A DNA stretch of 27,460 nt from a virus (IMGVR_UViG_3300028767_000080:1-27460); one strand, 5' to 3'; counted from the stretch's first letter, positions 4,039-22,037 are shown. Notes: generated from the letters alone by a model not told the origin. Translations and numbers: made by a program.

Positions 4039-4803
4039 ATGGCTAAAAAAGCAAGTGCCCAGAAAGTAGTAAAAACAGCTTATCAGAAAGCTGCTGAAGA
4101 ATTGAACGAAGTTCTTGGATTGACTGATCCCAGTATTGATACCACATTGAGTGACGAAGAGTTGAAACCGTTGTTGGTGGAAGCTATCACCCTGATTGCT
4201 GATGGTGACGAAATCAGTGAAGAAACTCAGGAAGTTGTTGATGAACTGTCCGCTGAAGCCCCGGCTGAAGAAGAGGAGGAAGAAGATGGTGCAGATTTGG
4301 CTGATGAAATCACTGCCTGTAAAAAGGTATCTGAACTTCAGGTTATCATCAAAGCAAACGATGCTTTCAAAAAAGCTGCAAAGAAACTGAACGCAATGAC
4401 AAAAGTTTCTGAATTGAAAGCTACCATGTTGGCTATCGTTGCCCCTGAGGAAGAAGAGGAAGAACAAGCCCCTGCAAAAACTCCTGAAAAACCAAAACCA
4501 GCACCTAAAGCCAATGCAAAGAAAGATGCCAAGCCAGAAGGGGAAAAGAAAGCCAAAGGATTTCCAGCACGTGAAGGCAAATCAAGAATTGTTTGTATTT
4601 GTGATGCTGTAAAAACAATCGGTGCAAAAGGGATGACAATAAAAGCTGTTGCTGAAGCATCCAACAAATTGTACATCAAAGAAGGTGGTGCTGGAAAGGA
4701 TAACGTAAAACAATCACTACATACCTTCAAAGTGATTATGCCAGTACTGGTTGAATTCAACCTGATTAAAGTTGATGGTGAGAACGTTTTTATGGCCAAG
4801 TAA
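4039..4803 (+). CDS. Acidic, low-complexity protein with an SSB-shared helical module and possible C-terminal winged helix
   Basis: Poly-Glu tracts, LADEITACKKVSEL...PEEEEEE module also present twice in 20571-22037, Lys/Pro linker; stop overlaps the radical SAM start (TAATG). Confidence 0.8.
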   Translation: MAKKASAQKVVKTAYQKAAEELNEVLGLTDPSIDTTLSDEELKPLLVEAITLIADGDEISEETQEVVDELSAEAPAEEEEEEDGADLADEITACKKVSELQVIIKANDAFKKAAKKLNAMTKVSELKATMLAIVAPEEEEEEQAPAKTPEKPKPAPKANAKKDAKPEGEKKAKGFPAREGKSRIVCICDAVKTIGAKGMTIKAVAEASNKLYIKEGGAGKDNVKQSLHTFKVIMPVLVEFNLIKVDGENVFMAK

Positions 4804-5855
4804 TGGGGGAATACAAAAATCCAATAAAGATAAGGGGCACGCATATGACGTGCCCTTTGCCTTTAACATTAGAATCTTACTGGACATGTGAGGCAGATTG
4901 CCTTCATTGTATGGGTAGGAGGTTGAATCAGATATGGGGGAATGAACAAAAATTTACAAACCCTGACAATGTTCATAGAATCCTTACCAATGCATTAAAG
5001 AAAGAAAATACAACACCAACAGCCAAAGCTTTATTTAAAAAGAAAGCTTTTTTTATTGGTAGGAAGGCAGATTCATATCAGCCTATTGAAAAGGAAAAGC
5101 ATATAACACACCAATTGGTTGAGATTTTAAATGAACTTGATTGGCCTTATGTGATCTGTTCTAAATATCAGGAAAACATGGTTGTGGATACTCCCCTGTT
5201 TTTGAATAATAAGAATGCAAATATTTTAGTTGAGATTACAGCAGGAGGAGAATCTGACAGGGAATTGTTTGAATTCAATAGAACAACACCGGTTGAAGAT
5301 AGGTTAAGAATTGCAAGAAAATGGAAACATAGTGGTATGAATGTGGGTGTCCGTGGTGAGCCTTTTATACCCGGTTATCATACCACAGAACAATTTCGGG
5401 ACACCTTAAAGCTGATTAAAAGCTATGGTTTGTTGTCCTACAATATATACAACCTGCACATCAATGAATACACCATGAAACGTATGCATGCTGCAGGTTT
5501 TGATATTGAACGGATATGGGAAATGAATCAGGATGATAGGTGGAAACCTATCCAGAAAAGACTTTGTATGATAGCTGAACAGGAAGGTATAGAGCTTGGC
5601 TGTCCAGATTTCGTAAATGTCCCAAAATGCCACACAAGTACCACAAATACATGTTGTGGTATATCCGTTCCGAATGCCTTTACTTTTAACACACATGCTT
5701 GGCGCAATGAGCTTATAAAAGGGGAAGCCCCGGAAGATGTTTTGAAAAATACTTGGGAGGGGGTAGGAACTGATATAGATTTTAAAATGGCTGAAACAAT
5801 AGTCTATAAAAAAGAGTCAAAAGATTTTTACACCTTTAAAAATGCAGATATATGA
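4803..5855 (+). CDS. Radical SAM protein (SPL/SplB-like), paralog 1
   Basis: CEADCLHC (CxxxCxxC) at 4887-4910, DSYQPIE, VRGEPFIPG and C-terminal TCCG. Confidence 0.85.
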   Translation: MGEYKNPIKIRGTHMTCPLPLTLESYWTCEADCLHCMGRRLNQIWGNEQKFTNPDNVHRILTNALKKENTTPTAKALFKKKAFFIGRKADSYQPIEKEKHITHQLVEILNELDWPYVICSKYQENMVVDTPLFLNNKNANILVEITAGGESDRELFEFNRTTPVEDRLRIARKWKHSGMNVGVRGEPFIPGYHTTEQFRDTLKLIKSYGLLSYNIYNLHINEYTMKRMHAAGFDIERIWEMNQDDRWKPIQKRLCMIAEQEGIELGCPDFVNVPKCHTSTTNTCCGISVPNAFTFNTHAWRNELIKGEAPEDVLKNTWEGVGTDIDFKMAETIVYKKESKDFYTFKNADI

Positions 5856-6568
5856 TTTACACAATAGGAACCACAGAACTGCATACCACCAGTGAAGAAG
5901 AAAGTGTTGATAAAGGTTCACCAAATCAGGTTGTAGGCTGGAGGGATATGGTGGAAACTTGTTACACATTATTTGCTGTATGTCAAAATATTACTTTTAA
6001 AAAACCCCCATTTATAGTTGATGGTATTTCAAGAGCAGGATGGTGGGGAGCTTGTTTCAGAAATATTTGGCCTGATTGTAAAATCCATTTGAATGAAGCC
6101 GAAAAACATTGTCTGGATACACTCAAAAGAAACTTCCCAAAGGACAAAATAACAAGCAATAGCATTAAGGAGTGGTCACCACCAACGTGTGATTTAGCTA
6201 TGATTGATTTTGACTTTTTTACTTTAAAGAAAGCCGAAAAAGAATGGGTGGATGTGTTACAAAGATGGGCTGCTGCTGCAAAGTATTTAATAATAGTTGA
6301 TGGTGCCTGTTTTGGCTTTAAGTTTGGAAATCTTAAAAGTTACAACTGCAGTAATGAAATTGAATATTATGATTTGCTTAACGAATTTATCAAACACAAT
6401 ATCCCCGGAAAAAGAATCACCCAAATAAGCAAATTTACCAATGCTGCCACTGTTGTTATTGAAGATGTGACCAAAGAAAACAAAAAAGATAAAATCAAGC
6501 ATATTCCCGCTTTTAGAAACATCCAAATAACAAAGAACAAATTCAAACAACCAAAACCTTTATTTTAA
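5852..6568 (+). CDS. Putative class I SAM-dependent methyltransferase-fold protein
   Basis: IVDGISRAGWWG (motif I-like), IHLNEAEKHCLDTLKRNF (motif II-like), CDLAMIDF; ends QPKPLF. Confidence 0.55.
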   Translation: MIYTIGTTELHTTSEEESVDKGSPNQVVGWRDMVETCYTLFAVCQNITFKKPPFIVDGISRAGWWGACFRNIWPDCKIHLNEAEKHCLDTLKRNFPKDKITSNSIKEWSPPTCDLAMIDFDFFTLKKAEKEWVDVLQRWAAAAKYLIIVDGACFGFKFGNLKSYNCSNEIEYYDLLNEFIKHNIPGKRITQISKFTNAATVVIEDVTKENKKDKIKHIPAFRNIQITKNKFKQPKPLF

Positions 6569-7584
6569 TGAATATAAATCCTGAGTGGGAAGAGGTACTT
6601 GATCAACTGAATTTTTTAGAGCTTGGTGGTGATTTAGGTTCAGTTGATCAAATATGTATTGATACTTTACATGGATCCATGTTCGGTTTGAATTATCGTT
6701 ATACAACACTTGAAGAGGTATTTAAAACACATAAACAGGATTTGTTAAAATACTCTATTCAAAGAATAAAAGAACTTACAAAAGAAAACAATTTTCAATT
6801 CAAAAAAAGAGCCATATCACGCTGTCAGGTTGGATTTGGTACATTTGGGTGGAAGTATGACAGTAAGTTAATTGAAACAGCTATAACATGTGGTGTTTCC
6901 CTTATAGATACTGCTGAGGGATATGGATATGGAAAGGTGGAAACTATATTGGGGGGTATTTTATCCGGGCAAGAAAATCCACCATCAATTTATACCAAAG
7001 TCAGAAGGGATCATATGAGCCCAAAAGCTTTACCTGAGGCTGTAAAAAGAAGTGTGCAAAAACTTCATGCAATCCCATTTGAACAGCTTCATTTCCCACA
7101 TGACAAGTTTAGTGACTCAGCTATAAAAATATTGTCAAATTTACAATGCTTAGGTAAAATAAAAGGGCTTGGCCTTGGTAACTGTTCAATTGATATGATT
7201 GAACAATCCCAAAGGATTTTAACTGAATATAATGGAACACCATTAACATCAATTCAGATTTCCTTTAGTTTATTAAATCAAAGAGCTACAAACACTATAA
7301 TTCCATATTGTCAAGAACGTGGGATATTAATTTTAGCATACAGCCCATTGGGGCAGGATTTTAAAAAGCTTCAGACACCATTTTTGAAAAAGATAGCTAA
7401 AAAATATTCAGCAACAGAATCCCAAATTGCACTCAGCTGGATATTATCTTTCCACGGGGTGGTTCCTATTCCGGCAACAAATAATATTGAACATTTAAAG
7501 CAAAATATTAAAAGTAATGATTTAAAGTTAGATGCTGATGATGTACTGAAACTTTCTAATTATTATAAAAATTTGTATATATAA
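6568..7584 (+). CDS. Aldo/keto reductase with an ~80-aa N-terminal extension
   Basis: VGFGT, IDTAEGYG, IYTKV, QLHFP (Asp/Tyr/Lys/His tetrad), AYSPLG, QIALSW, PIPAT...HLKQN. Confidence 0.92.
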   Translation: MNINPEWEEVLDQLNFLELGGDLGSVDQICIDTLHGSMFGLNYRYTTLEEVFKTHKQDLLKYSIQRIKELTKENNFQFKKRAISRCQVGFGTFGWKYDSKLIETAITCGVSLIDTAEGYGYGKVETILGGILSGQENPPSIYTKVRRDHMSPKALPEAVKRSVQKLHAIPFEQLHFPHDKFSDSAIKILSNLQCLGKIKGLGLGNCSIDMIEQSQRILTEYNGTPLTSIQISFSLLNQRATNTIIPYCQERGILILAYSPLGQDFKKLQTPFLKKIAKKYSATESQIALSWILSFHGVVPIPATNNIEHLKQNIKSNDLKLDADDVLKLSNYYKNLYI

Positions 7585-7596
7585 ACTTTTAGGATT

Positions 7597-8592
7597 ATGG
7601 ATTTGAAATATGAAGATTTAGATTATTGGGCACTAAGGAAGCTGATTGCCCGGGTTGTACCCCGCATCACTCAACTGGTATCCTCCAGACGTAAAGCACA
7701 TGCTGTGCAGGAAAAGGGCAGGAAAAAGAATTATAGTCAATTCAATCTCCGTCACAATGAATGGCGTAAACAGGAAAGGTTATTGAATACAGAGGAAATT
7801 AACAGCTTCCTTGAAATATCCATCCGGGCTGCTGCCTGTCCTATGCCTTTTAACATGGATGTGTGGGATGGGCTTGTTTGTATTGCTAAAGGGCAACGAA
7901 TAACAACAAATAAAGGAAAAATTCCAATTGAAGAAGTTATTGTTGGAGATATTGTTTTGTCGTATAATGAAGCTACAAAAGAAACGGAATGGAAGGAGGT
8001 TTTAAAAACAACCAAATCAATAAAAGAAGATATTATTGAAATGGGGACTTCTTTGGGTTTATTGAGATTGACCCCTGATCACAATATTTTTACCCAACGG
8101 GGATGGATTGAAGCTGCTTATGTGGATATTTATGATACCATTTATACATATGAAGAAGGGATAAAAGGAATTATTGGCGTTCCTGTGGATACTTATTATT
8201 ATTTGGATGAGGAGCCAACAGAGGTGTACGATGTAACCGTACAAGATAATCCAAACTTCTTTGCTGAAGGGATGCTGGTTCATAATTGTCCTTTTGCCTG
8301 CATTTATTGCTTTCCTTCCGATACTAAAATCATGATGGTTGACGGTACGGAGAAAGTGATTGAAAGAATATTGGTTGGGGATAGGGTAATATCTTTTAAT
8401 GAGACAACAAAACAACTTGAACCCGCTGTTGTAACTCAGCCAATGAAACGACATTATAATAAAGAATTGATCTGTATAGAAACAGAGGATGGGAAAGTGC
8501 TAAAAATGACACCAGAACATCCGATATATACACAAAGAGGGTGGATTGAAGCAAAAGGGTTAACAGAGAAAGATGAGGTGTTGATATGGTAA
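7597..8592 (+). CDS. Radical SAM paralog 2, N-terminal part: extein, mini-intein, CPFACIY, then the N-fragment of a split intein
   Basis: CPMPFNMD matches CPLPLTLE of paralog 1; two Hint N-termini (CIAKG, CFPSD), TPDH/TPEH block B motifs and a VHN/C junction. Confidence 0.88.
   Translation: MDLKYEDLDYWALRKLIARVVPRITQLVSSRRKAHAVQEKGRKKNYSQFNLRHNEWRKQERLLNTEEINSFLEISIRAAACPMPFNMDVWDGLVCIAKGQRITTNKGKIPIEEVIVGDIVLSYNEATKETEWKEVLKTTKSIKEDIIEMGTSLGLLRLTPDHNIFTQRGWIEAAYVDIYDTIYTYEEGIKGIIGVPVDTYYYLDEEPTEVYDVTVQDNPNFFAEGMLVHNCPFACIYCFPSDTKIMMVDGTEKVIERILVGDRVISFNETTKQLEPAVVTQPMKRHYNKELICIETEDGKVLKMTPEHPIYTQRGWIEAKGLTEKDEVLIW
7879..8286 (+). mobile_element. Mini-intein (136 aa, no endonuclease) in radical SAM paralog 2
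   Basis: Starts CIAKG, block B LTPDH, ends VYDVTV...NFFAEGMLVHN with Cys at +1. Confidence 0.92.
8308..8589 (+). mobile_element. Split intein N-fragment (94 aa)
   Basis: CFPSDTKI...MTPEHPIYTQRGWIEAKGLTEKDEVLIW then stop, at the usual end of the N-terminal splicing region. Confidence 0.85.
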
Positions 8593-9305
8593 CTTGTAAC
8601 TATTGTGGTAAAAAGTTTGTCTGTATAACTAATACTCATTTGAAACGGCATAATCTTAACCGGGAAGTGTATTTGAAACTTTACCCTGATTCAGAATTAA
8701 CAAGTAAAGAACACAGAGAACACCAACACGATGCTTTAATGGGTAAGAACGTTGGAAATGTACGAAAGGATGCCCGAAAGAGAATGAATTCAAATAATCC
8801 AATGAAAGATCAAAAAATTGCTACTAAAATGGGTAATGTAAGGAAAGTTAAAATAGCAACAGGAGAAATTGACGTCATGAGTAATTTCAATCATTTACCT
8901 ACCAATCATGAAAAACATTTAATTTATTGGTTTGCTGAATGGGGTATTCCTTTACAGTACGTGGGGGATGGAAAAGTAATGATTGGGGGGCTTTGTCCTG
9001 ATTTTATTAATGAGGATTTGAAAATCATTCTTGAATTGAATCTCAATTTTACTTCCCAGCCAAGGAATGAAATGAATGAAAAAGAAAGGATTTACAATTC
9101 ATTAGGCTACAAAGTAATTTGGGTTACTAAAATGTTAAAATCTTATGTGAAATCATGGGTGTGTCCTTTTTTCAACGGAGGCTTAAAATCAAAACGTATT
9201 ATCAAGATTTGGAAAGAGAATAACAATAAAGGCAGGAAACAGGTTTACAACATGGAAGTAACTCCAAACAACACCTATGTAGCGAATGGAATTGTTGTCC
9301 ATAAT
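8586..9305 (+). mobile_element. Split intein C-fragment carrying an N-terminal homing-endonuclease-like domain
   Basis: CxxC...HLKRH finger, PTNHE...CPDF...IILE...GYKVIWV (Vsr/DUF559-like), then blocks F/G at about 9183-9305 ending HN. Confidence 0.8.
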
Positions 9306-10433
9306 TGCTTTGCAAATGCTTTCCGGGCTTCTCTATACACCGCATTCTTCGATAATAGTAAAACGATGGGATTTCGCCACTGCAATCCAACCTACTACAA
9401 ACAGGAAATGGATAAAATGGATAAGTACCGGGGAATGGGTGAAGCTGAAAAGAAAAAACTATCTGGAATCAATAAAGCTTATGCATATGATATGCCTTTG
9501 CGTTTGGGTATCCGGTTTGAGGATTTCCTGAAAGATGAGGGCAAAGAAAAGGTATCACTGGAAATGTTACAATACTTGAAAAAAATAGAGTACCCGGTGA
9601 TGATTAATAGCAAATCAGGATTGCCCAGTGAAGGAAAGTACTTGGAAGCATTGGCTGGAAATAAAGCCAAAGCAGCTATTCATATCACCCTGATCAGTAA
9701 CAATGATGAAATATTAAGTAAGCTTGAGCCCGGTGCTCCTCCTTATGCTGAAAGATTGAAAGCTTTAAAAGTTCTGAGTAAAGCCGGGATCAGGGTTGTT
9801 GCCCGCATTGAACCTTATCTTTTCCTGCTGAATGATGAGAAGGAGGATACAGAACGATATATTGAAGAAGTTTGGGATGCAGGTGTAAGAAATATCACTT
9901 TTGATACTTATTCCTATACTGCCCAAAATCAGGGTATCCGTCAAAGTTTCATAAACAAAGGATTTGATTATGACCGTTTGTTTACAGCCGGGTGTGATAG
10001 TCAACCACTGGGAAGCCTATTGTTGGGTAAATTCATGGAATTGTTCCGGGCTAAAGGATTCAGTTGTAGTACCTTTGATATGGGTAATGTACACACCAAT
10101 GATGATGCTATTTGTTGTGAGGTTGGGGATTGGTTTGAGGGAGGCTTCAATTATGGCAGTACTGTTATGGCAGCCCGTTTCATTAAAGACCGGGGAAAGC
10201 TTTTCACCACTTGGAGTGATTATGAAAGCTGGGTTGAAGATCATGGGGGCTTCCTGACTGAAGAGATACGAATGGATGTAAAACACTTGTGGAACTTGGA
10301 AGGGAATTTTGCATACAGCCATAAATGGGCTGTGGGCTTGGTTCCAGTAGGAAGGAATGAAGATGGCCTTGTGTGGGCTATTGATACAACAGTGGGGGAT
10401 TATCGTATGGACTTATTAAATTCAATTATATGA
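8586..10433 (+). CDS. Radical SAM paralog 2, C-terminal part: Zn finger/Vsr-like endonuclease, intein C-fragment, then a 375-aa C-extein
   Basis: VYNMEVTPNNTYVANGIVVHN/CFANAF junction at 9305/9306; the extein has SKLEPGAP, RLKALKVL, VARIEP and ICCE, which are SPL-like features. Confidence 0.88.
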   Translation: MVTCNYCGKKFVCITNTHLKRHNLNREVYLKLYPDSELTSKEHREHQHDALMGKNVGNVRKDARKRMNSNNPMKDQKIATKMGNVRKVKIATGEIDVMSNFNHLPTNHEKHLIYWFAEWGIPLQYVGDGKVMIGGLCPDFINEDLKIILELNLNFTSQPRNEMNEKERIYNSLGYKVIWVTKMLKSYVKSWVCPFFNGGLKSKRIIKIWKENNNKGRKQVYNMEVTPNNTYVANGIVVHNCFANAFRASLYTAFFDNSKTMGFRHCNPTYYKQEMDKMDKYRGMGEAEKKKLSGINKAYAYDMPLRLGIRFEDFLKDEGKEKVSLEMLQYLKKIEYPVMINSKSGLPSEGKYLEALAGNKAKAAIHITLISNNDEILSKLEPGAPPYAERLKALKVLSKAGIRVVARIEPYLFLLNDEKEDTERYIEEVWDAGVRNITFDTYSYTAQNQGIRQSFINKGFDYDRLFTAGCDSQPLGSLLLGKFMELFRAKGFSCSTFDMGNVHTNDDAICCEVGDWFEGGFNYGSTVMAARFIKDRGKLFTTWSDYESWVEDHGGFLTEEIRMDVKHLWNLEGNFAYSHKWAVGLVPVGRNEDGLVWAIDTTVGDYRMDLLNSII

Positions 10434-11209
10434 CAACAAAAATTTCAGATTTAGTTGAAGGCATATTTGCGAATGCAGTAGCCTTGGACCAAAATGGAGG
10501 TCTTAAAAATACCATTTACGCAATCGGCAGTGAAGTGTTCATAATGAATTATGATCATACTGTTTTGCTGCGCTTTCGGTTAAGAAGGTCAGAAGCAAGT
10601 TTTGATAGCCCTATCAGCTTCAAGGCAAATGATTATGACAGTAATGAGTTTGAGCAGAAAGATGGCAGGGTGATCTTTTATTCTGGTAACAAGGGATACA
10701 TCAAGAAAAAGACCTGCGGAACAACAGACCTGACCCCGGAAGAGGTAAAAGATTTGTTTGAAGGTTATATGGAGTTATCTGAGGAAACCCTTACAGCCAC
10801 TTTATCCAAAGACATATTGGAATTAATGGATGATAGCCTGTCTCACATAGAATTTACAGGTATAACTGGAAAAGGTGTTAAATTGACCCAAAGGAACATT
10901 TACAGTGGGGGAGTGATTGAGGTGGAAAAGAAGTCAGACGGCTTTTTCAAAGATGAACTTGAATCTGACTTTGGCCCAATCGGTATCAAGACCAGTGACT
11001 TCCAAGCACTGTTTACTTTTCAGAACCAATTGAAATTCTCTTTCCCCGGTTCTATGGATGAAAACAACTTTATTGTTGTGAAGTCTATTGAAAGTAAAAG
11101 GGATATGGTAGGCATAATTGCTTCCTGTTTGTATGATGAGATCATTAAAATCAAGGAAGTAAAACGTTCAGAATCAAAGAAAGCTAAACCAATGTTAAAA
11201 CGTAAATAA
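10430..11209 (+). CDS. Possible PCNA/gp45-like sliding-clamp-fold protein
   Basis: 259 aa; FIMNYDHTVLLRFRLRRSEASF resembles the PCNA strand pattern (AMDSSHVALVSL.LRSEGF); two-domain size. Confidence 0.45.
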   Translation: MTTKISDLVEGIFANAVALDQNGGLKNTIYAIGSEVFIMNYDHTVLLRFRLRRSEASFDSPISFKANDYDSNEFEQKDGRVIFYSGNKGYIKKKTCGTTDLTPEEVKDLFEGYMELSEETLTATLSKDILELMDDSLSHIEFTGITGKGVKLTQRNIYSGGVIEVEKKSDGFFKDELESDFGPIGIKTSDFQALFTFQNQLKFSFPGSMDENNFIVVKSIESKRDMVGIIASCLYDEIIKIKEVKRSESKKAKPMLKRK

Positions 11210-11211
11210 TC

Positions 11212-11346
11212 ATGGGTGGAAAAAGCAGGAAAAGTGGTGGAATTTCAAGGAAATTGATTGCCCAAATTAAAGCCGGGAATGGTACCAAATGTAATGGAAC
11301 GAAAAAACCCGTTAAAGATGAAACAGCAAAACCTTTGTTTGATTAG
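11212..11346 (+). CDS. Unannotated 44-aa Gly/Lys-rich basic peptide
   Basis: MGGKSRKSGGISRKLIAQIKAGNGTKCNGTKKPVKDETAKPLFD; ATG 2 nt after the upstream stop, in the taatcATG context used by other genes; below the ORF-track cut-off. Confidence 0.7.
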   Translation: MGGKSRKSGGISRKLIAQIKAGNGTKCNGTKKPVKDETAKPLFD

Positions 11347-12118
11347 GGAGTATCTGAAAAGGGCTGAACAATTAAGAATACAACCCAACTTCTTCATGTC
11401 TGAAGCTTATCTGATATTAATGGATGTGGAAGGAGTTAAAAATGATTTTTGGATTTGGATTGCCACTGAGGATGGTTGTTTACTTCCTCCGTTACCCCTA
11501 TACGGCAAAGAATCCCTTTGGTTTCCAAATATTACGGATATATGGGCTTGTTTTCCAGTAAATAATGAAGGTTATAAATTAATGGCAGGAAAACAAGAGT
11601 TTCTGGATTATCAATATATCTTTGATCCAAAAGCTTTCCAATCTATGGTTGGAGGTAAATGGGAAACCTTTAGAAAGAATTGCCGGAAGGTATTGAAAAA
11701 TGATCCTGAGGTTCAATATTTATCTGAACCTTTAGATGAATCAGAAGTCCCTATGTTTATAGGAAACTGGTTGGAAAGAAAGGAAGAAACTGTTGAAGAT
11801 GGTTTGTTTTTAGCTGATTTCGCTTTCTTATCTAACAATGAACATATAGGCAGGAAATTCCTGTATTTGGATGGTAAATTAGCTGCGATAAATGCTTGGG
11901 ATAGTAATTACATGTACATCAATTATCGTGTCTGTATGTGTGATGAAACTGTGCCATATATCAGTGAATTTGCCCGGTTTAAATTCTACCAGCAATGGTG
12001 GTATTCAAATGTATTAGTGAATGATGGGGGTTGCTTGGGTTTAGCCTCCTTGGAAAAATTCAAAGATAAAATGAACCCAATTGAAAAAATTCCAATTTAC
12101 ACTTTAAACCTAAAATAA
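11318..12118 (+). CDS. DUF2156 / LPG-synthase C-terminal-like GNAT (aminoacyl)transferase
   Basis: DYQYIFD...MVGGKWETFRKN, LDGKLAA, VNDGGCLGLASLEKFKDKMNP; start moved from TTG 11258 to ATG 11318. Confidence 0.65.
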   Translation: MKQQNLCLIREYLKRAEQLRIQPNFFMSEAYLILMDVEGVKNDFWIWIATEDGCLLPPLPLYGKESLWFPNITDIWACFPVNNEGYKLMAGKQEFLDYQYIFDPKAFQSMVGGKWETFRKNCRKVLKNDPEVQYLSEPLDESEVPMFIGNWLERKEETVEDGLFLADFAFLSNNEHIGRKFLYLDGKLAAINAWDSNYMYINYRVCMCDETVPYISEFARFKFYQQWWYSNVLVNDGGCLGLASLEKFKDKMNPIEKIPIYTLNLK

Positions 12119-12388: not shown

Positions 12389-13387
12389 ATGAAAAAAGCA
12401 GATTTACAAAAAGCTCTTGAGATAGCCAAACCGGGGCTGAGTAACAAAGAACAGCAGATTGAACAAACCAATCATTTTGCTTTCATTGCAGGTCGTGTCG
12501 TAACGTATAACGATGAAATCAGTGTATCCCATCCGGTTGAAGGATTGGAGATTGAAGGGGCTGTAAAAGCCGATGTATTGTATTCAATCATCAGTAAGAT
12601 CAAGGCTGAAGATATTGATTTATCAGTTAACGAAAGTGAAGTGGTGATTAAGTCAGGTAAAATGACAGCCAGTATTGCCCTTCAACATGAAGTATCCCTG
12701 CCTTTGGAGGAGGTTTCTGATATGGGTAAATTCAAAAAGATACCAGACAATCTCATAACCTTATTACATCTGGCTGCCGGGGCTTGCCCCAGTGGTATGG
12801 ATAGACCTGTATTGACCTGTGTAAATGTTATGGATAACGTTGTACAGGCTTCTGATGGATTTAAGATCATTGAAGGTACTTTGAGTTCAAAACTTCCGGT
12901 TGAAAGCTTTCTTATCCCTGCACCTGCAGCTATGAAAGTTTGTACCATGAATCCCAATCGGATCAGTGTGACTGAAAGTTGGGTTCATTTCAAGAATAGT
13001 GAAGGAACTACAATCAGTTGCCGTACATTTGAAGACACTTATCCTGCGATTTCCCACATTCTTTCGGTTAAAGGGGATAAAGTTACATTACCAACCGTGA
13101 TGCCTGAGATATTGGAACGTGCGTGGGTATTTGCTGTCCGGGAAAGTGCTTCATTAGAGGTACTGAATGTTATTTTGACTAAAAAGAAAATCACTGTAAA
13201 AAGTCAAAGTGATTATGGTAAATTTGAAGAATCTGCTATTATTAAGTTTGATGGGGCAGAATCAGAATTTTCCATTAGCCCTTACCTCCTAAAAGGTATC
13301 CTGAAACAAACGCTGGAATGTATTATCGGTTCAGATCGTTTGAAATTTGAAGGTTCTGATTGGGTTTGTATAACAGCTTTGAAATAA
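12389..13387 (+). CDS. dnaN: DNA polymerase III beta-like sliding clamp
   Basis: 332 aa; RPVLTCV, ASDGFKI, FLIP, YPAI and ISPYLL motifs typical of beta clamps. Confidence 0.85.
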   Translation: MKKADLQKALEIAKPGLSNKEQQIEQTNHFAFIAGRVVTYNDEISVSHPVEGLEIEGAVKADVLYSIISKIKAEDIDLSVNESEVVIKSGKMTASIALQHEVSLPLEEVSDMGKFKKIPDNLITLLHLAAGACPSGMDRPVLTCVNVMDNVVQASDGFKIIEGTLSSKLPVESFLIPAPAAMKVCTMNPNRISVTESWVHFKNSEGTTISCRTFEDTYPAISHILSVKGDKVTLPTVMPEILERAWVFAVRESASLEVLNVILTKKKITVKSQSDYGKFEESAIIKFDGAESEFSISPYLLKGILKQTLECIIGSDRLKFEGSDWVCITALK

Positions 13388-14136
13388 TGTTACGAAGACA
13401 AGGAACAAAGGATGGGATTAATGCTAAAATCAGGGTTTATTTCCCATCTCATACTTCTTATGTTGAGCCCTTCTTTGGAGCTGGGGGTATGTTTTTTAAT
13501 AAACCTTTAGTCAAGTATAATTGCGTTAATGATAACGATTCAGAAGTCTTTAACCTGTTTCAAGTTATTCAAAATCATTTAGAGGAATTTAAACAACAAT
13601 TTGAAGATACCCCTATTAATGAAGATTTGCTGAGGCATTGGAAGGAAAACAAAGAAATAGAACCAATAATGAAAGCTGTACGTTTTGTTTTCTTGTCAAA
13701 TTATACTTTATTTGGGAAAATGGGAACGTTGAACAGTTCTGTAAATAGTAATCACAAAAGCTTATATTTAGTTGATTTAAAACATATTCAATCCCATATT
13801 AAAAATACCCATTTCTTTAATCATGATTTTCGTGACTTTTTGAGAATAATTGCGATTGAAGAATGTTCAACCTTCATTTATGCTGACCCTCCTTATATTA
13901 CAACGAATGCTAATTACACTGGATTCACTGAACAAGACAGCTTGGATTTATTTGATAGCCTTGAAGCTAAAAAATGTAAATGGGCTATGAGTGAATTTGA
14001 TAATCCTTTTATATTGAATCAAGCCAAAGACCGGGGGCTGAATGTTATCATTATCGGTGAACGTAGAAACATCAACAATCGCAGAACTGAAATTTTAGTT
14101 ACCAATTACAAAACACCAAACAAGAGCTTAATATGA
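13387..14136 (+). CDS. dam: Dam-like (D12 class) N6-adenine DNA methyltransferase
   Basis: YVEPFFGAG motif I, DPPY motif IV, EILVTNY; start at ATG 13387 overlapping the clamp stop. Sequence specificity unknown. Confidence 0.9.
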   Translation: MLRRQGTKDGINAKIRVYFPSHTSYVEPFFGAGGMFFNKPLVKYNCVNDNDSEVFNLFQVIQNHLEEFKQQFEDTPINEDLLRHWKENKEIEPIMKAVRFVFLSNYTLFGKMGTLNSSVNSNHKSLYLVDLKHIQSHIKNTHFFNHDFRDFLRIIAIEECSTFIYADPPYITTNANYTGFTEQDSLDLFDSLEAKKCKWAMSEFDNPFILNQAKDRGLNVIIIGERRNINNRRTEILVTNYKTPNKSLI

Positions 14137-15356
14137 ACGAAGGTTTTTTCACAAAGAAGGAAACTGAAAGTGTCAGCAGACCGGATGGTAGACCCCGCAC
14201 ATGTATAAGCTGTGGAATTTACCGGACAAGCAAAAACCCCAAGATGAAACCTTTCGGAAATTTCAAAAAAGGAATCATGAATATTGGGGCTTGTCCTGAG
14301 GAGGTGGATGACTCCTGCGGAAAACCTTTCCATGGTAGGGATGGAAAAACAATAAAGACAGCTTACCACAGGATGGGTATAGACTTATTTGAGGACTGCA
14401 TCAACCTGAATGCTGTAAATTGTTTTTGCTCTACCCAAGAAGGGGAACGCAGGGAACCAACCCCAAATGAGGTAGAAACCTGCCGCAAATCTATTTTAGC
14501 CTATATTAAGCAATACAAGCCACGAATCATCGTACTATTTGGTGAATCTGCTTTACTTAGTGTTATAGGTCATAGATGGAAGGAAGGGGCAGAATCCATG
14601 GAAAAGTGGCGTGGTTTCTGTATCCCTGATCAAGAGTACAAAGCATGGTTGATCCCGGTCTTTGATCCCAACTTCCTGAATCCCAAAAAACCTGAAATTG
14701 AAACTATCTGGATTCAGGATTTATCACAGGTAAAAGAAAAGTTGAATGAAGAGTTCCCTAACCACGTTGACCCGGTTATTGATATTGTTGACGATTTTAG
14801 CATGTTTGATGATATCGTTCATGGTACTATTGCTTTTGATTATGAAACTACAGGATTGAAACCTCACGCTGAAGGGCATCGTATTATTTGTGTTTCAGTG
14901 GCTGATAGTGAAGATCATGTTTGGGTAGGTAGAATGCCGGAAAGCAGATCAGGAAAACAACCGTTCAAAAGGCTTCTACAATCCAATGCCATATTGAAGA
15001 TGGCCCACAATATGAAATTTGAGGATACTTGGACAAATGTAGCTTTAAAGTTTCCTATAAATCATTGGTGGTGGGATAGTATGCAAGCTGCCCATGTGTT
15101 AGATAACAGGGAGGGGATAACAGGATTGAAATTTCAGACTTATGTGAATTTTGGGGTATCTGATTACAGCACTGAGGTCAGCCCCTACCTGAAAGCCAAA
15201 GATGATAAAAATGCAAATTCAATTAATCGGATTGAGGAGCTTTTGAAGTTTCCGGGAGGGGAACATAAATTGCTAACTTATTGCGGTCTGGATAGTATCT
15301 ATGAATTCAGGCTGGCTATGAAACAACAATCTATTATGAATTATTTACCTTTTTAA
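14133..15356 (+). CDS. Family 4 UDG-like domain fused to a 3'-5' exonuclease (N-terminal part of a split family A polymerase)
   Basis: CISC, GKPFHG.DG, NAVNC, PTPNEVETC (Fe-S UDG fold); ExoI FDYETTGL, ExoII HNMKFE, ExoIII YCGLDS. Confidence 0.88.
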   Translation: MNEGFFTKKETESVSRPDGRPRTCISCGIYRTSKNPKMKPFGNFKKGIMNIGACPEEVDDSCGKPFHGRDGKTIKTAYHRMGIDLFEDCINLNAVNCFCSTQEGERREPTPNEVETCRKSILAYIKQYKPRIIVLFGESALLSVIGHRWKEGAESMEKWRGFCIPDQEYKAWLIPVFDPNFLNPKKPEIETIWIQDLSQVKEKLNEEFPNHVDPVIDIVDDFSMFDDIVHGTIAFDYETTGLKPHAEGHRIICVSVADSEDHVWVGRMPESRSGKQPFKRLLQSNAILKMAHNMKFEDTWTNVALKFPINHWWWDSMQAAHVLDNREGITGLKFQTYVNFGVSDYSTEVSPYLKAKDDKNANSINRIEELLKFPGGEHKLLTYCGLDSIYEFRLAMKQQSIMNYLPF

Positions 15357-15359
15357 ATT

Positions 15360-16034
15360 ATGAAAATAGGAACTAAATCAGTGTTATACGGAGCTCATTG
15401 CTTTTTTATCCATCCAATCTTTGTAATGGTAGCTTGGTGGAAGTTGTACGGTTTTCCAAATAATATTCAATATTGGATTGCATTTTTTGTACACGATCTT
15501 GGATATTGGGGAAAACCTAATATGGACGGCCCCGAAGGAGAAACACATGTTGAACTTGGAGCGAATATTATGGGTTGGTTATTTGATTTCCATATTGGAA
15601 CGTTACGTGGAGAATTCTATAAATTAACTCACGGCCAAATATGGATGGCTTGTTATGAATGGGTATATGTAGAAAAATACTCATGGAAATGGGCTGAATT
15701 TTCAAAATACCATTCAAGATTTTATGCCAAAAAAGATAAAGCACAATATTCAAAACTTTGCGTGGCTGATAAATTAGCTATCTGTATTGAACCAATGTGG
15801 TTGTATTTATTTAGAGTTAATTTGACAGGGGAAGTGAATGAATACATGGCTAAAGCTGCCGACAAAGAAGGTAAAAATGCTTCAATGAAATTAACAACGG
15901 TAAATCAAAAAGAATGGTTTAAAAGCATGGGGGCTTATCTGCGTGAATGGGTTGAAACTCATAAAGATTTGAAACCAGATACGTGGACACCAGAGTACAA
16001 AGAATCTATTAATGATCAAGGGGTATGGAAATAA
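15360..16034 (+). CDS. HD-domain-like phosphohydrolase
   Basis: H...VHDLG...H...YHSR...ADKL pattern. Confidence 0.6.
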   Translation: MKIGTKSVLYGAHCFFIHPIFVMVAWWKLYGFPNNIQYWIAFFVHDLGYWGKPNMDGPEGETHVELGANIMGWLFDFHIGTLRGEFYKLTHGQIWMACYEWVYVEKYSWKWAEFSKYHSRFYAKKDKAQYSKLCVADKLAICIEPMWLYLFRVNLTGEVNEYMAKAADKEGKNASMKLTTVNQKEWFKSMGAYLREWVETHKDLKPDTWTPEYKESINDQGVWK

Positions 16035-18481
16035 ACCCAAAGACAAGTGAAGCTTATGACCTTATGCATCAAGGTATATTAGCACTGGCAAAGGCGGAAA
16101 GGCAGGGATTTCGGATTGATGTTGAATATTTGGAAAACAAAAAATCCCACCTAACACGCAAAATATCCCGGCTGGAAAGTCAATTTGAAAATAGTACTTT
16201 TTACAAGAAATGGCAGCGTCAGAGTACCACTAAAATCAACCCCGGGTCAGGGGATCAGCTTGGAAAGTATCTTTACACCACTTTGGGACTAAAGCCACAG
16301 AAACTAACAAAAACTGGTAAAGGTTCAACGGATGAAGAAGCCTTGGGACTTTTGAATTTACCGGAACTGAATGCCATATTAGAAGTAAAGAAACTGAAGA
16401 AAATCCGGGATACTTATTTGGATGGTTTTCTGAGGGAGCAAATCAATGGACAGATTCATCCTTTCTATAACCTGAATACAACGGTAACATACCGTTCATG
16501 TATTGCTAAAGGAACGAAAATATTGGCTGTTAGAGATTTTTACAGGTATCCGAATGGAGTTCCTATTGAAAAGATCAAGGAAGGGGATTTTGTTTATTGT
16601 TTTGATGATAATTTAAACCCTGCTATTCAAAAAGTACTTTGGTCTGGAAAAACCGGACATAAAGAAGTTATCAGGATTCATTATTCAGCGAAAGGTGGGG
16701 GAGGAAAAGGATTTTTGGACGTTACCCCTGAGCATCTTATACGCGTAATTAATGGGGAATACGTTGAAGCCCAGAATTTAGTTGGGGATTTTAGAAAGCC
16801 TGAAGAAAGTAAAAGACTTGGAAAAATAAGAACTTTGTCTTGTAAACGGGTTGATGTTAATTTAAATTTTACCGGTCATGTAAAAGGGGGTAAAGGTGTT
16901 CTTGAACATCGTTTGGTCTATTCCCAGTTAATTGGGGATTTAAAGCCTGCGGAAGTTGTTCATCATAAGGATGAGGATCATTTCAATCATACACCATCTA
17001 ATTTAAGAAAAATGACTTTAAAACGTCATTCATATCTCCATTCTTTAAAAGTATCTGATGAAATAAAACAAAATAGGATTAAGACGTTGAAAGAAAATCG
17101 ACATTTGATTACCTATACTTCAGGAGCTGAAAATCCTTTGAGTATGAACTTGACAAAATTTCAATGTTACCGATTATTGGCACAAAATTCAGGAAAGTTA
17201 AAAGGGATTAATTTTGATTTTGGTACAATTAAAAAGTATTTAGAAATAAATGGAATAGACCCTTTTAAAGTTCGATTGCGTTTTGATAAACATGGGGAAT
17301 ATATTTGGAAATCTAATTTAGAAAAAATATCTATTTTAGGTCGTTCTGAGGTTTCTAAATTATTAGGGCATAATCATTATCGTTTGTTAGAATTATATTC
17401 GATTTATGGGATTGATGAAAAGCGTAAATGGGGAAATCAATTTGGTGCATTTAAACCCGGAAATCACCAAATCACAAAGATTGAATGGGTAAACAAAAAG
17501 GTAGATGTTTATGATATTGAAGTAGAAAAATACCATAATTTCTTTGCTAATGAAATTTGTGTACACAATTCATCAAATAACCCGAATTTCCAAAACCTTC
17601 CTGCCCGAGATGAGGAGTCAATGAGGATGGTTAAAGATGCTATCTTTCCACGTTTAGGGCATCAATTGTTGGAAGTGGATTTCAAGGGTATAGAGGTTGC
17701 TGTGAATGCCTGTATAAATAAAGACCCGGTATTGATACATGACATCCTTCACGGAGATATGCACGGGGATATGGCTAAACAGATTTTCAAAGTACCTAAT
17801 TTTGATAAAAATACACCAACTCATAATACCCTACGTTCAGCAGCAAAGAATGGGTTTGTATTTCCTGAGTTTTATGGGGATTATTTCAAAAGCTGTTCTG
17901 AAAACCTTGCTACACGCTGGGGAAAGCTCCCCCAAACTAAATGGTCAATGGGGCAGGGGATAGCTTTTGAGAAAACATTTTTATCAAACCATTTAATCAG
18001 CCAAGGAATAACATCATTTTCCTCCTTCACAAAGCATATTGAAAATATTGAAAATGAGTTCTGGCATGAACGTTTTATGGTGTATGGTAAATGGAAGGAT
18101 ACTTGGTTCAGGAAGTACCAAAAGAACGGATTCATTGACCTACCCACAGGCTTCCGGTGTAGTGGGGTTATGAACAAGAAACAGGTTTGTAACTACCCGG
18201 GGCAGAATGGGGGTTTTATGTGCCTGTTGTGGTCTTTGATTGAGGTGACTGATATTCTTGAACAAGAACAAAGGGATACCAAAGTGGTGGGGCAAATCCA
18301 TGATAGTTTGATACTTGATGTACATCCTGATGAATTATCTCATATCCTTGAAGTAGTGAAATACGTTACCTGTACAGCCCTTCAAAAACACTTTGATTGG
18401 ATAATTTTACCCATGGAAGTGGATGCTTCCATCTCAGGTATAGACCAATCTTGGGCAACCAAGGAAAAGTGTAAAATATAA
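16025..18481 (+). CDS. polA: Family A DNA polymerase, polymerase domain only, intein-containing (461 aa after splicing)
   Basis: STDEEAL, TYRS/SSNNPNFQN, motif A EVDFKGIE, motif B RSAAKNGFVFPEFYG, motif C QIHDS. Confidence 0.93.
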   Translation: MEINPKTSEAYDLMHQGILALAKAERQGFRIDVEYLENKKSHLTRKISRLESQFENSTFYKKWQRQSTTKINPGSGDQLGKYLYTTLGLKPQKLTKTGKGSTDEEALGLLNLPELNAILEVKKLKKIRDTYLDGFLREQINGQIHPFYNLNTTVTYRSCIAKGTKILAVRDFYRYPNGVPIEKIKEGDFVYCFDDNLNPAIQKVLWSGKTGHKEVIRIHYSAKGGGGKGFLDVTPEHLIRVINGEYVEAQNLVGDFRKPEESKRLGKIRTLSCKRVDVNLNFTGHVKGGKGVLEHRLVYSQLIGDLKPAEVVHHKDEDHFNHTPSNLRKMTLKRHSYLHSLKVSDEIKQNRIKTLKENRHLITYTSGAENPLSMNLTKFQCYRLLAQNSGKLKGINFDFGTIKKYLEINGIDPFKVRLRFDKHGEYIWKSNLEKISILGRSEVSKLLGHNHYRLLELYSIYGIDEKRKWGNQFGAFKPGNHQITKIEWVNKKVDVYDIEVEKYHNFFANEICVHNSSNNPNFQNLPARDEESMRMVKDAIFPRLGHQLLEVDFKGIEVAVNACINKDPVLIHDILHGDMHGDMAKQIFKVPNFDKNTPTHNTLRSAAKNGFVFPEFYGDYFKSCSENLATRWGKLPQTKWSMGQGIAFEKTFLSNHLISQGITSFSSFTKHIENIENEFWHERFMVYGKWKDTWFRKYQKNGFIDLPTGFRCSGVMNKKQVCNYPGQNGGFMCLLWSLIEVTDILEQEQRDTKVVGQIHDSLILDVHPDELSHILEVVKYVTCTALQKHFDWIILPMEVDASISGIDQSWATKEKCKI
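16499..17569 (+). mobile_element. Intein (357 aa) with HNH homing endonuclease
   Basis: CIAKG start, VTPEH, EHRLV...VVHHKDEDHFNHTPSNL HNH, VYDIEV...NFFANEICVHN/S end. Confidence 0.93.
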
Positions 18482-20570: not shown

Positions 20571-22037
20571 ATGGCAAAGAAAGAAAAGAAAAAAAGCATT
20601 TTTGCAGGTCAGGTTGTGGACAACGTAAGGGATAACAAACGCTCAAATGAACGTTCCTATGGATACCTGAAACTGCCCAAAGGAGTAAAAATTTGGAGCC
20701 CAGAAGTGGCTTCTGAAGTTGGAAAAGGTATCACTGCAACCTTTGATATCATCCCCTACAAAGTCGCTACTGCTAAACATCCTGACTTGAAAAAGGAAAC
20801 CGGAAGAGCCGAAAAAGGTTCACTGTGGTACAAAAGACCTTTCAAAGTTCACCGCAATGTTGGCCCAGATAACGACACCGTGGTATGTCTTACCTCCTTT
20901 GGGGAAAAGTGTCCCATCTGCGAATATGCTACCAAACGCTGGAAAGAAGGAGCTGAAAAAGAGGAAACAAAAGACCTATGGGCAAAAGACCGGGAAATGT
21001 TCGCCATTGTTCCCAAGGGGGATAAAAAGCATGAAGAAGAGGTTCATGTGTTTGATATCAGTCACTACAACTTCCAAGAATCCTTAATGGAGGAAATTGA
21101 TGAGCATGAAGAGTTTGAAATCTTTCCTGACTTGGAAGAAGGGCTGACCCTGAAAGTACGTTTTGCCGCTGCCTCTATGGGAGGTAAAAGCAAGCCGTAT
21201 GCTAAAGCCAGTAGGATTGATTTTGTGGAACGGGATGAAGCTTATGATGAATCAATACTGGAAAGTGTACCAGATTTGGATTCACTTCTTGTCAAAATGT
21301 CTTACGATGAAATGAGTGCTAAATTCTTTGATGTAGCCACTGAAGAGGAGGAAGAAGAGGAAGAAGCCCCGAAAGGAAAGAAAGAGGAAAAACCAGCCTT
21401 GAATCGTCAAAAAAAGATAGCTGAACCTGATCCAGAACCTGAGGAGGAAGAAGAGGATGAAGAAACATTGGCAGATCAGATTGATGCTTGTAAAAGTCTT
21501 GGGGCACTTCTCACTATTGCTACCAATAACAAGGAGTTCAAAAAATCCCTGAAAAGTTTTGCTACAATTAAAAAGGTATCTGAATTGAAAGCTGCTATGA
21601 TGGAAATCATTGAGCCTGAAGAGGAGGAAGAAGAAGAACCGGAAGAGGAAGAAGAAAGCTTGGTGGATCAAATCAATGCTGCCAAGAAGGTTTCTGAATT
21701 GATGGAGATTGCTGAAAATAATGAGCCGTTGAATGATAAAAAGACCTTGAAAAAATTAGGGGCTTTTGTTAAGGTATCAGGATTAAAAGCAGCCATGTTG
21801 GAATTGTTGGAACCTGAGGAGGAAGAAGAGGAAGAAGAGGATGAACCTGAACCCCCAAAGAAAACCCCTGCTAAAAAACCAGAAGCCCCGAAAACAACCG
21901 GAAAAGATAAATGCCCTTTCAAACATGGTTGGGGTATAGGAACTGAGGATCATAAAGAATGCGACAAATGTGATATTTGGGACAGCTGTATTGACGAAAA
22001 GGAAAGACTTGCAAAATTAAACAAAGGTAAAAAGTAA
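20571..22037 (+). CDS. gp32-like single-stranded DNA-binding protein with an extended modular acidic tail
   Basis: FDIIPY, VHRNVG...VCL...CPICE Zn motif, very acidic tail, two helical repeats and a terminal Cys motif. Confidence 0.75.
   Translation: MAKKEKKKSIFAGQVVDNVRDNKRSNERSYGYLKLPKGVKIWSPEVASEVGKGITATFDIIPYKVATAKHPDLKKETGRAEKGSLWYKRPFKVHRNVGPDNDTVVCLTSFGEKCPICEYATKRWKEGAEKEETKDLWAKDREMFAIVPKGDKKHEEEVHVFDISHYNFQESLMEEIDEHEEFEIFPDLEEGLTLKVRFAAASMGGKSKPYAKASRIDFVERDEAYDESILESVPDLDSLLVKMSYDEMSAKFFDVATEEEEEEEEAPKGKKEEKPALNRQKKIAEPDPEPEEEEEDEETLADQIDACKSLGALLTIATNNKEFKKSLKSFATIKKVSELKAAMMEIIEPEEEEEEEPEEEEESLVDQINAAKKVSELMEIAENNEPLNDKKTLKKLGAFVKVSGLKAAMLELLEPEEEEEEEEDEPEPPKKTPAKKPEAPKTTGKDKCPFKHGWGIGTEDHKECDKCDIWDSCIDEKERLAKLNKGKK

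Follow-up and report, generated by a model that had tools for sequence, protein, structure and literature searches.

A conserved gene set beside the replicative clamp

The viral sequence IMGVR_UViG_3300028767_000080:1-27460, hereafter the window (the whole stretch analysed, 27,460 nt), carries at positions 4039 to 12118 nine open reading frames (ORFs) on the + strand (4039-4803, 4803-5855, 5852-6568, 6568-7584, 7597-8592, 8586-10433, 10430-11209, 11212-11346 and 11258/11318-12118), with gaps between -29 and +12 nt; the series runs on through genes for a DUF7352 protein, a beta-type clamp, Dam and PolA. The source is a virus record; a 59-kb contig, identical across the genes tested, holds tailed-phage structural genes, and the contig of the window itself is about 80% complete. 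An initial annotation had proposed a new phage modification system here, and several of its statements stand. The coordinates confirm same-strand, abutting or overlapping ORFs that lead into replication genes, and the fold labels hold for radical S-adenosylmethionine (SAM) enzymes resembling spore photoproduct lyase (SPL), a class I methyltransferase (MTase) fold, an aldo-keto reductase (AKR), a PCNA fold and a GNAT fold. The usual markers (hydroxymethylase, Que/Dpd, PurZ, glycosyltransferase) are indeed missing from the 30 ORFs of the window that were scanned; the 59-kb contig has a glycosyltransferase beside its capsid gene, outside the module. The nine ORFs are not nine genes, as 7597-8592 and 8586-10433 form a single intein-interrupted radical SAM gene, and the first ORF has to be left out of the module, being also present in 12 of 30 relatives that lack it.

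The core of the module, found in dozens of uncultured phages, comprises two radical SAM enzymes (rSAM1 and rSAM2), the PCNA-fold protein, a peptide with the start MGGKSRK and a DUF2156-fold transferase. Loci were fetched with an rSAM2 alignment (85) and with a transferase alignment (80, of which the 74 newly numbered were examined); the transferase alignment was built from the rSAM2-fetched set, so that the two sets overlap. The initial annotation had named gene-neighbourhood conservation as a check, and the module genes do co-occur across relatives: in transferase-anchored loci with enough DNA, the PCNA-fold protein was present in 67 of 67, rSAM2 in 57 of 57 and a beta-type clamp gene after the module in 66 of 66, while the peptide was found in 73 of 73 loci (70 by pattern, the other three starting MAGGKSRK). 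All 45 non-redundant full loci had at least two radical SAM ORFs.

rSAM1 (4803..5855) is an SPL-like (PA0069/Rv2578c-like) radical SAM protein with a match to NF033668 (E 6.7e-14) that lies below the cut-off. Its CxxxCxxC motif occupies residues 29-36, and in an alignment C29, C33 and C36 are invariant, as are C17, C267, C284 and C285. Homologs numbered 227 for rSAM1 and 549 for rSAM2. Both enzymes (4803-5855 and 9306-10433) match PA0069/Rv2578c radical SAM models below the cut-offs, the best score being 51.7 bits against a curated threshold of 360, and a sequence search of the PDB with rSAM1 returned nothing significant. In five loci (L035, L058, L059, L060, L080) the transferase is followed by a third SPL-like radical SAM protein, about 505 aa long, and a divergent rSAM1 clade (L024, L036, L041, L048, L069, L082) travels with a DUF362 gene.

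The two-domain PCNA-fold protein (10430..11209) is private to the module and absent from module-less relatives. A PDB sequence search with it gave nothing significant; its predicted structure (AF2, pLDDT 90) has the two clamp domains of a sliding clamp and matches PCNA in Foldseek at E 5.6e-9 (VIA Z 15.5, rmsd 4.2, 211 aligned). In one locus an RtcB ligase gene lies between rSAM2 and the PCNA-fold gene (L034:11404-12582). The core peptide (44 aa, 11212..11346) has an invariant head, GGKSRKxGxxSxxL, a variable Lys-rich linker and a PLF-type tail. A profile search with it returned 293 clusters; among the best 150 of these, 149 were short stand-alone peptides, GGK was present in 149, and Ser5, Arg6, Lys7, Gly9, Ser12 and Leu15 were each present in 148.

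The last core gene encodes a DUF2156/PF09924-fold (double GNAT), aminoacyl-tRNA transferase-like protein (11318..12118; Atlas TM 0.79-0.85). Its longest frame starts at TTG 11258, and comparison with relatives makes ATG 11318 the likely start. The window protein aligns to 2HQY at E 1.8e-4, and a relative (L042) matches PF09924 at E 1.1e-4 (21.9 bits, cut-off 27.5). A basic helix between the domains is conserved, with R119, K120, R123 and K124 in 49-53 of 54 sequences. The Mom model PF25680 matched none of the window proteins. The GNAT fold reported earlier is right, and the enzyme is a DUF2156 double GNAT rather than Mom-like.

rSAM2 and its two inteins

The frames 7597-8592 and 8586-10433 encode one radical SAM enzyme, rSAM2, since their pieces match a natural intein-free protein (P0002) and their lengths sum to the 476 aa of that protein. 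The N-extein (94 aa, 7597..7878; 87 of 94 residues identical to P0002) is followed, before Cys1 of the cluster motif, by intein a (7879..8286), a contiguous mini-intein (C...HN) with Pfam Hint/intein, TIGR01445 and TIGR01443 matches. A seven-residue extein, CPFACIY (8287..8307), identical to P0002, then supplies Cys1 and Cys2 of CxxxCxxC and leads into the N-half of split intein b (8308..8592), which ends at a real stop codon overlapping the next ATG (ATGGTAA); GAGGTG lies 5 nt upstream of this ATG at 8586. The second frame opens with a likely zinc-finger/DUF559 (Vsr-like) homing endonuclease (8586..9182; weak matches, DUF559 E 0.055 and zinc finger E 0.06-0.25), N-terminal to the C-half of intein b (9183..9305, start approximate), which ends VHN and matches TIGR01443 at E 9e-6. 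The C-extein (375 aa, 9306..10433; 94% to P0002) begins with Cys3, matches PF04055 at E 1.4e-5 and has a radical SAM fold in the structure model.

Cys1 and Cys3 of the cluster motif are therefore the +1 residues of inteins a and b, and CxxxCxxC is complete only in the spliced form. The halves of intein b lie in separate ORFs and have Cys1, His-Asn and Cys+1. Since the inteins end just before Cys1 and Cys3, rSAM2 would need one cis-splice and one trans-splice, and in the window phage it would be active only after both predicted reactions. The ATGGTAA overlap and the GAGGTG spacing recur in L029 and L033, and the endonuclease-intein-extein build, with its N-terminus, is found in P0007, P0023, P0041, P0066 and P0105 as well.

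That the break at 8586-8592 stems from misassembly or a frameshift was considered and rejected: the junction is spanned without differences by contigs from runs X7 and X8, the overlap is conserved in relatives, the new frame has only three open codons ahead of the ATG, and by eye no slippery run is visible.

Other states of the rSAM2 inteins occur among L031, L044, L049, L054, L058 and L039, including a three-ORF fractured form, an endonuclease fused to the N-half, a split without an endonuclease, and a contiguous mini-intein in which the last residues of the endonuclease survive. The three-ORF form, found at site a in L031, L049 and L054, is the classic one of PMC2677866, on fractured genes in which split inteins occur together with Vsr-like endonucleases. 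As in those genes, a likely endonuclease of Vsr/DUF559 type lies where the window's intein is split. Unlike them, the window has the endonuclease joined to the C-half, a radical SAM enzyme as the interrupted host, and a seven-residue exon enclosed by two inteins within the cluster motif. The doubly interrupted motif would also provide a new natural split intein.

Slot exchange, tailoring genes and neighbours

The module occupies a slot whose right border is the replicative beta-type clamp gene (12389..13387; phrog_947, E 1e-31). To see what else is found there we used the best 80 of at least 316 clamp-loader-anchored loci; in 32 of these 80 the sequence extends 1.2 kb or more ahead of the clamp. 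Two of the 32 carry the module, one being the window's own phage. The 30 without it have in its place a TGT/DpdA-like gene in 27 cases (phrog_887, E 3e-58), FolE in 20 and QueC in 13; we take the phrog_887 gene to be DpdA (PMC6884629). The remaining slots hold Mom (one, L176; PF25680, E 2e-44), Dam alone (one) and a different radical SAM gene (one; phrog_9298, the lone radical SAM-like gene at L123:3746-4915). When the module is exchanged, the acidic gene and the beta-type clamp remain, and the PCNA-fold gene leaves with the module. Conversely, DpdA matched one of 169 module-bearing stretches, so that the two are nearly mutually exclusive; the sole locus with both has its DpdA-like gene at L204:2555-3523. 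In seven loci (L105, L109, L120, L142, L173, L130, L164) DpdA-like genes are accompanied by glycosyltransferase-like, radical SAM and SDR genes, and these clusters possibly make undescribed 7-deazaguanine derivatives. A k-mer comparison of 46 module with 24 DpdA replication regions found differences, for example in ATCG, AGG and GCA; kinship and GC confound them, and they point to no particular base.

Between rSAM1 and rSAM2 the window has two accessory genes. One encodes a class I SAM-methyltransferase-fold protein (5852..6568; 3ntv profile match, E 4.8e-6; Atlas TM about 0.6) with a C-terminal PLF tail, in which alignment places Arg at the Gly of motif I. The other encodes an AKR (6568..7584; PF00248, E 1e-36) that has an additional N-terminal domain, about 80 aa long; its Asp, Tyr, Lys and His positions, presumably the catalytic tetrad, are conserved in 12 of 12 aligned sequences. 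Both had been listed as parts of the system, and both are present with the folds assigned to them, as accessories rather than core members. Across 45 loci the tailoring set was a pyridoxal phosphate (PLP) enzyme in 19, AKR with MTase in 8, DUF362 in 4, AKR with an FAD (flavin adenine dinucleotide) enzyme in 3, MTase with PLP enzyme in 2, single other genes in 4 and none in 5. A tailoring position is also taken by an Amidoligase_2 gene (L038:8523-9440), a type of enzyme described from thymidine hypermodification clusters (PMC8989533). Beside MTase-fold and PLP genes lies a CmoA-like carboxy-SAM synthase (L073:7654-8373; TIGR00740 E 3e-40, below cut-off), hinting at carboxymethyl transfer.

The AKR never occurs alone (12 of 12): it is paired either with the FAD enzyme or with the combination of MTase and one rSAM1 clade. 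In a quick rSAM1 tree of 60 rows the AKR+MTase loci form that one clade (8 rows, SH-aLRT 100), and their MTases have Arg at motif I where the other 8 MTases have Gly. On the rSAM2 tree, a quick tree of 53 rows from which a pattern filter dropped L075 and several others, the AKR+MTase loci are scattered, and a grouping of 7 of them is rejected (p-AU 8e-8). Thus rSAM1 moves with the finishing enzymes and rSAM2 with the backbone, and, as the trees indicate, rSAM1, the MTase-fold protein and the AKR move as one unit.

Several accessory genes connect the module to known thymidine pathways. In Pseudomonas phage M6, which makes 5-NedU, gp51 is the amino-acid:DNA transferase, gp52 the PLP decarboxylase, gp53 the radical SAM isomerase, gp54 the kinase and gp58 the hydroxymethylase, and the PaMx11 5-AcNmdU pathway uses gp46, the FAD enzyme gp47 and the acetyltransferase gp48; M6 gp52 and PaMx11 gp47 act on glycyl-thymine in DNA (PMC8989533). 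The accessory PLP enzyme of the relatives is 36% identical to M6 gp52 over 98% of its length, and Lys36, the aldimine residue of gp52, is present in 90% or more of 29 sequences; their accessory FAD enzyme is 27% identical to PaMx11 gp47 over 85%. Among 95 stretches, which include the complete genomes G003 and G005 and the 80%-complete G001, tblastn at E 0.01 found gp52 homologs in 39 and gp47 homologs in 4. PLP, FAD or radical SAM tailoring enzymes, as in the thymidine pathways, are found in relatives; of these the window has only the distant radical SAM protein. By hhalign rSAM1 aligns to gp53 at 97% (E 1e-10) and rSAM2 weakly (profile alignment, 66%). Because gp53 and both radical SAM proteins share matches to the same broad models, their relationship, judged by profiles, is one of kinship and not orthology.

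The enzymes that start the known pathways are another matter. The same tblastn search, which very remote homologs could escape, found M6 gp51, gp54, gp55, gp58 and gp59 and PaMx11 gp46, gp48, gp49 and gp52 in 0 of 95 stretches; PaMx11 gp51 matched one (L046). The dUMP hydroxymethylase family PF00303 was found in one of five genomes and in neither of the two complete ones, in which the 5-hmU (5-hydroxymethyl-uracil) DNA kinase and the aGPT-Pplase2 transferase were likewise not found. Pfam scans of 108 and a further 65 ORFs of these genomes gave no hydroxymethylase, Que/Dpd or PurZ and no TET/JBP match; G003 carries ThyX, and glycosyltransferases occur among the structural genes of the genomes scanned. 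With these defining starters not found, and despite a proposed mode of action like that of M6 and PaMx11, the module is, as far as sequence comparison goes, not a member of the M6/ViI/PaMx11 pathways based on 5-hydroxymethyl-uracil (5-hmU).

Among the flanking genes, the acidic, Lys-rich protein of the first ORF (4039..4803), which borders the replication region and is not module-specific, had no match in family searches; it has one stretch of about 75 aa in common (51%) with a long acidic SSB-like protein (20571-22037). The PolA polymerase domain (16025-18481) holds an HNH-containing intein, and uracil-DNA glycosylase (UDG) and 3'-5' exonuclease form a separate upstream gene (14133-15356). 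The product of this gene has an N-terminal GFF motif common to relatives, and its UDG motif reads GACPE, compared with GEAPG, GEGPG or GESLG in 14 other matched variants, an alteration that may leave the glycosylase inactive. The link between UDG-fused PolA and T-modified genomes (PMC13697223) was not used: the nearest matches from cultured phages reach 24-26%, and in the window the UDG motif is degenerate. Searches of cultured phages with rSAM1, rSAM2, the transferase, the clamp and the UDG-exonuclease gave weak matches or none and so offer no isolate, PADLOC found nothing in six window pieces, and a promoter and terminator scan stayed at chance level (33 vs 29; 4 vs 6). The longer contig (L089:3236-5916 and L089:10210-13449) has a sulfotransferase and a glycosyltransferase-methyltransferase fusion adjoining its capsid gene, and a DUF559 intein inside its Mu-F head protein.

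Proposed role and comparison with known systems

Replication-linked DNA modification by radical, redox and aminoacyl steps, the function suggested by the initial annotation, is supported by synteny, by homology to DNA-thymine tailoring enzymes and by the slot shared with DpdA and Mom; in detail that proposal has to be altered, with the MTase and AKR accessory, the acidic gene outside and the GNAT enzyme not Mom-like. We consider it likely that the module carries out post-replicative hypermodification of the phage's own DNA, by a route that bypasses hydroxymethyl-uracil, the kinase and the amino-acid:DNA transferase. That DNA is the target we would hold with good confidence from gene content and position; that an amino acid, probably glycine, is coupled to thymine we favour by a little; and that the peptide acts as a carrier is a tentative suggestion that may well be wrong.

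In the scheme we propose, the DUF2156-fold enzyme would take an amino acid from a charged tRNA and load it onto the invariant head of the peptide, as a Ser ester or Lys amide; the conserved basic helix, whose role is described in PMC8913301, and the precedent of Mom (PMC13219725) suggest the tRNA step. Peptide and tailoring enzymes would dock on a clamp by LF-type tails, with the PCNA-fold protein as the module's own platform. rSAM2, the most conserved member, would make a thymine-methyl radical, a proposed intermediate for gp53 (PMC8989533), and couple the glycyl unit to it, and rSAM1, travelling with the tailoring genes, would reshape the adduct. In the window phage, where a PLP or FAD enzyme is lacking, rSAM1 would be the source of a carbonyl that the AKR reduces, and alkylation would fall to the MTase-fold protein; relatives would finish the adduct with a PLP decarboxylase or FAD oxidase. 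As a whole, a tRNA-charged peptide on a private clamp that feeds a radical SAM pair functionalising the unactivated thymine methyl directly in new DNA, without hydroxymethyl-uracil, with an undescribed set of radical SAM, MTase-fold and AKR enzymes as finishers in this phage and cis- and trans-splicing as a prerequisite, is speculative, and we doubt that it will prove correct in every part.

By analogy, LF-type tails may bind a clamp. Among MTase-fold proteins 10 of 16 end in the motif, and among Dam proteins 4 of 5, compared with 82 of 1047 in the background; it is present in 36 of 56 peptide tails (4.4 in shuffles), and in DpdA, unseen when the pattern was written, it ends 8 of 25 (p 6e-4). 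A complex prediction for rSAM2, transferase and peptide scored 0.13, below the mark of 0.32, and weighs neither for nor against the scheme.

A number of observations weigh against modification of thymine by this scheme. The tail pattern was composed after the tails had been viewed, and it also ends 8 of 16 FolE-like proteins, which do not act on DNA. The window itself has no gp52 or gp47 homolog, so that the link to thymine runs through relatives; five of the 45 loci have no recognised tailoring gene, and the window's MTase has the altered motif I. rSAM1 is no nearer to gp53 than to the general PA0069 family, with gp53 and both radical SAM proteins matching the same broad models, and the best Foldseek rows for the rSAM2 model include, as weak matches, SuiB and SkfB (TM about 0.35), maturases of peptides that are synthesised ribosomally and modified post-translationally (RiPPs), in a search that fails to separate radical SAM subfamilies. 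A Pfam scan of the window transferase gave no match. An N-terminal Gly as donor is at odds with the start MAGG rather than MGG in three loci and in 6 of 149 peptides.

The closest rival is a Mom-style reaction, in which the DUF2156 enzyme would aminoacylate an amine of a base, either A N6 or C N4, directly from charged tRNA, the radical SAM enzymes rearranging or trimming the product and the peptide serving as an adaptor. Slot and synteny fit it equally well, Mu Mom moves Gly from tRNA directly to adenine N6, giving 6-NcmdA (PMC13219725), and the nearest structural rows of the MTase-fold protein are N6-adenine tRNA methyltransferases. However, thymine pathways are the only ones from which the accessory homologs are known, the acceptors of characterised DUF2156 enzymes are lipid and sterol hydroxyls (PMC8913301), and an adaptor has no obvious need of an invariant Ser/Lys-rich N-terminal head; we regard this version as unlikely, if worth keeping in view. 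Tailoring of the 44-aa peptide itself in the manner of a RiPP was the alternative offered at the outset, to which its stable crosslinking to DNA may be added; the product would be a modified basic peptide. The strict co-conservation of a small invariant peptide, the SuiB/SkfB rows and the action of aminoacyl-tRNA GNATs on peptides (PMC13219725) speak for it. It is disfavoured by the module's replacing DNA-modification systems in the slot, carrying a clamp and swapping in gp52 and gp47 homologs; moreover, the peptide sequence is unchanged across tailoring sets, both radical SAM proteins match SPL-like models, and the neighbourhood has no conserved protease or transporter. Pfam gave no PqqD/RRE or SPASM match, in a search that divergent forms could escape, and both radical SAM proteins have extra conserved cysteines. 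We judge this reading improbable.

Two further readings retain still less of our credence. The enzymes might modify tRNA wobble uridine (cmnm5U/mnm5U-like) and so tune host translation, given that gp47 resembles MnmC1 (PMC8989533), that a radical SAM enzyme and an MTase complete mnm5U in some bacteria (10.64898/2026.05.18.725915) and that rSAM1 faintly matches the MnmL model (E 0.033). That match is far below cut-off, and the private clamp, the position in a replisome operon and the exchange with DpdA and Mom all point to DNA, which makes a tRNA target very improbable. Homologs labelled 'DNA repair photolyase' in databases, together with the SPL-like model matches, would suit clamp-bound, photoproduct-lyase-like repair enzymes with unrelated passengers as neighbours, but the modification enzyme M6 gp53 bears the same label, the TIGR04070 (spore photoproduct lyase) threshold is far from reached (12.5 vs 400 bits, E 0.052), and the all-or-none linkage with the transferase, the peptide and amine-tailoring enzymes is left unexplained; we give repair hardly any weight. 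Post-replicative DNA hypermodification thus remains the reading we prefer.

We found no published description of this gene set in the literature searched, which omitted most subscription papers. To our knowledge, every characterised amino-acid modification of thymine has 5-hydroxymethyl-uracil as its starting point, together with a kinase and an amino-acid:DNA transferase. Published metagenome surveys have been anchored on the kinase (PMC8989533) and would therefore miss the module, which is real and conserved and probably represents a new route to phage DNA hypermodification. If true, it would be a widespread third entry route, after the 5-hmU-based pathways and Mom, and it would add radical chemistry that functionalises C-H bonds of DNA directly, tie DUF2156 enzymes to DNA and bring several new bases.

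The transferase has the fold (TM about 0.8) and the conserved basic helix of the MprF C-terminal domain, ErgS and 2HQY, and differs from them in being viral, without a membrane domain and below the Pfam cut-off; our literature searches found no DUF2156/PF09924 enzyme with a DNA or peptide acceptor. The DpdA/FolE/QueCDE systems hold the same slot in related phages, and their DpdA has similar LF-type tails, but they have no enzymes in common with the module. Mu Mom, whose family takes the slot in L176, likewise has a GNAT fold and uses charged tRNA, as predicted here; it is a single PF25680 enzyme, in contrast to a multi-enzyme radical system with a DUF2156 double GNAT. Some relatives resemble PaMx11 in having gp47 homologs at the tailoring position, which the window does not; there they are paired with an AKR rather than an acetyltransferase, and gp46, gp48 and gp49 have no counterpart. 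The likeness to M6 includes the gp52 homolog of relatives, SPL-like radical SAM enzymes with extra cysteines like gp53 and modular tailoring. Unlike M6, however, the module has two radical SAM enzymes, the DUF2156 transferase, the peptide and the PCNA-fold protein in place of any match to gp51, gp54, gp55 or gp58, and the window phage pairs an MTase with an AKR where M6 uses a PLP enzyme.

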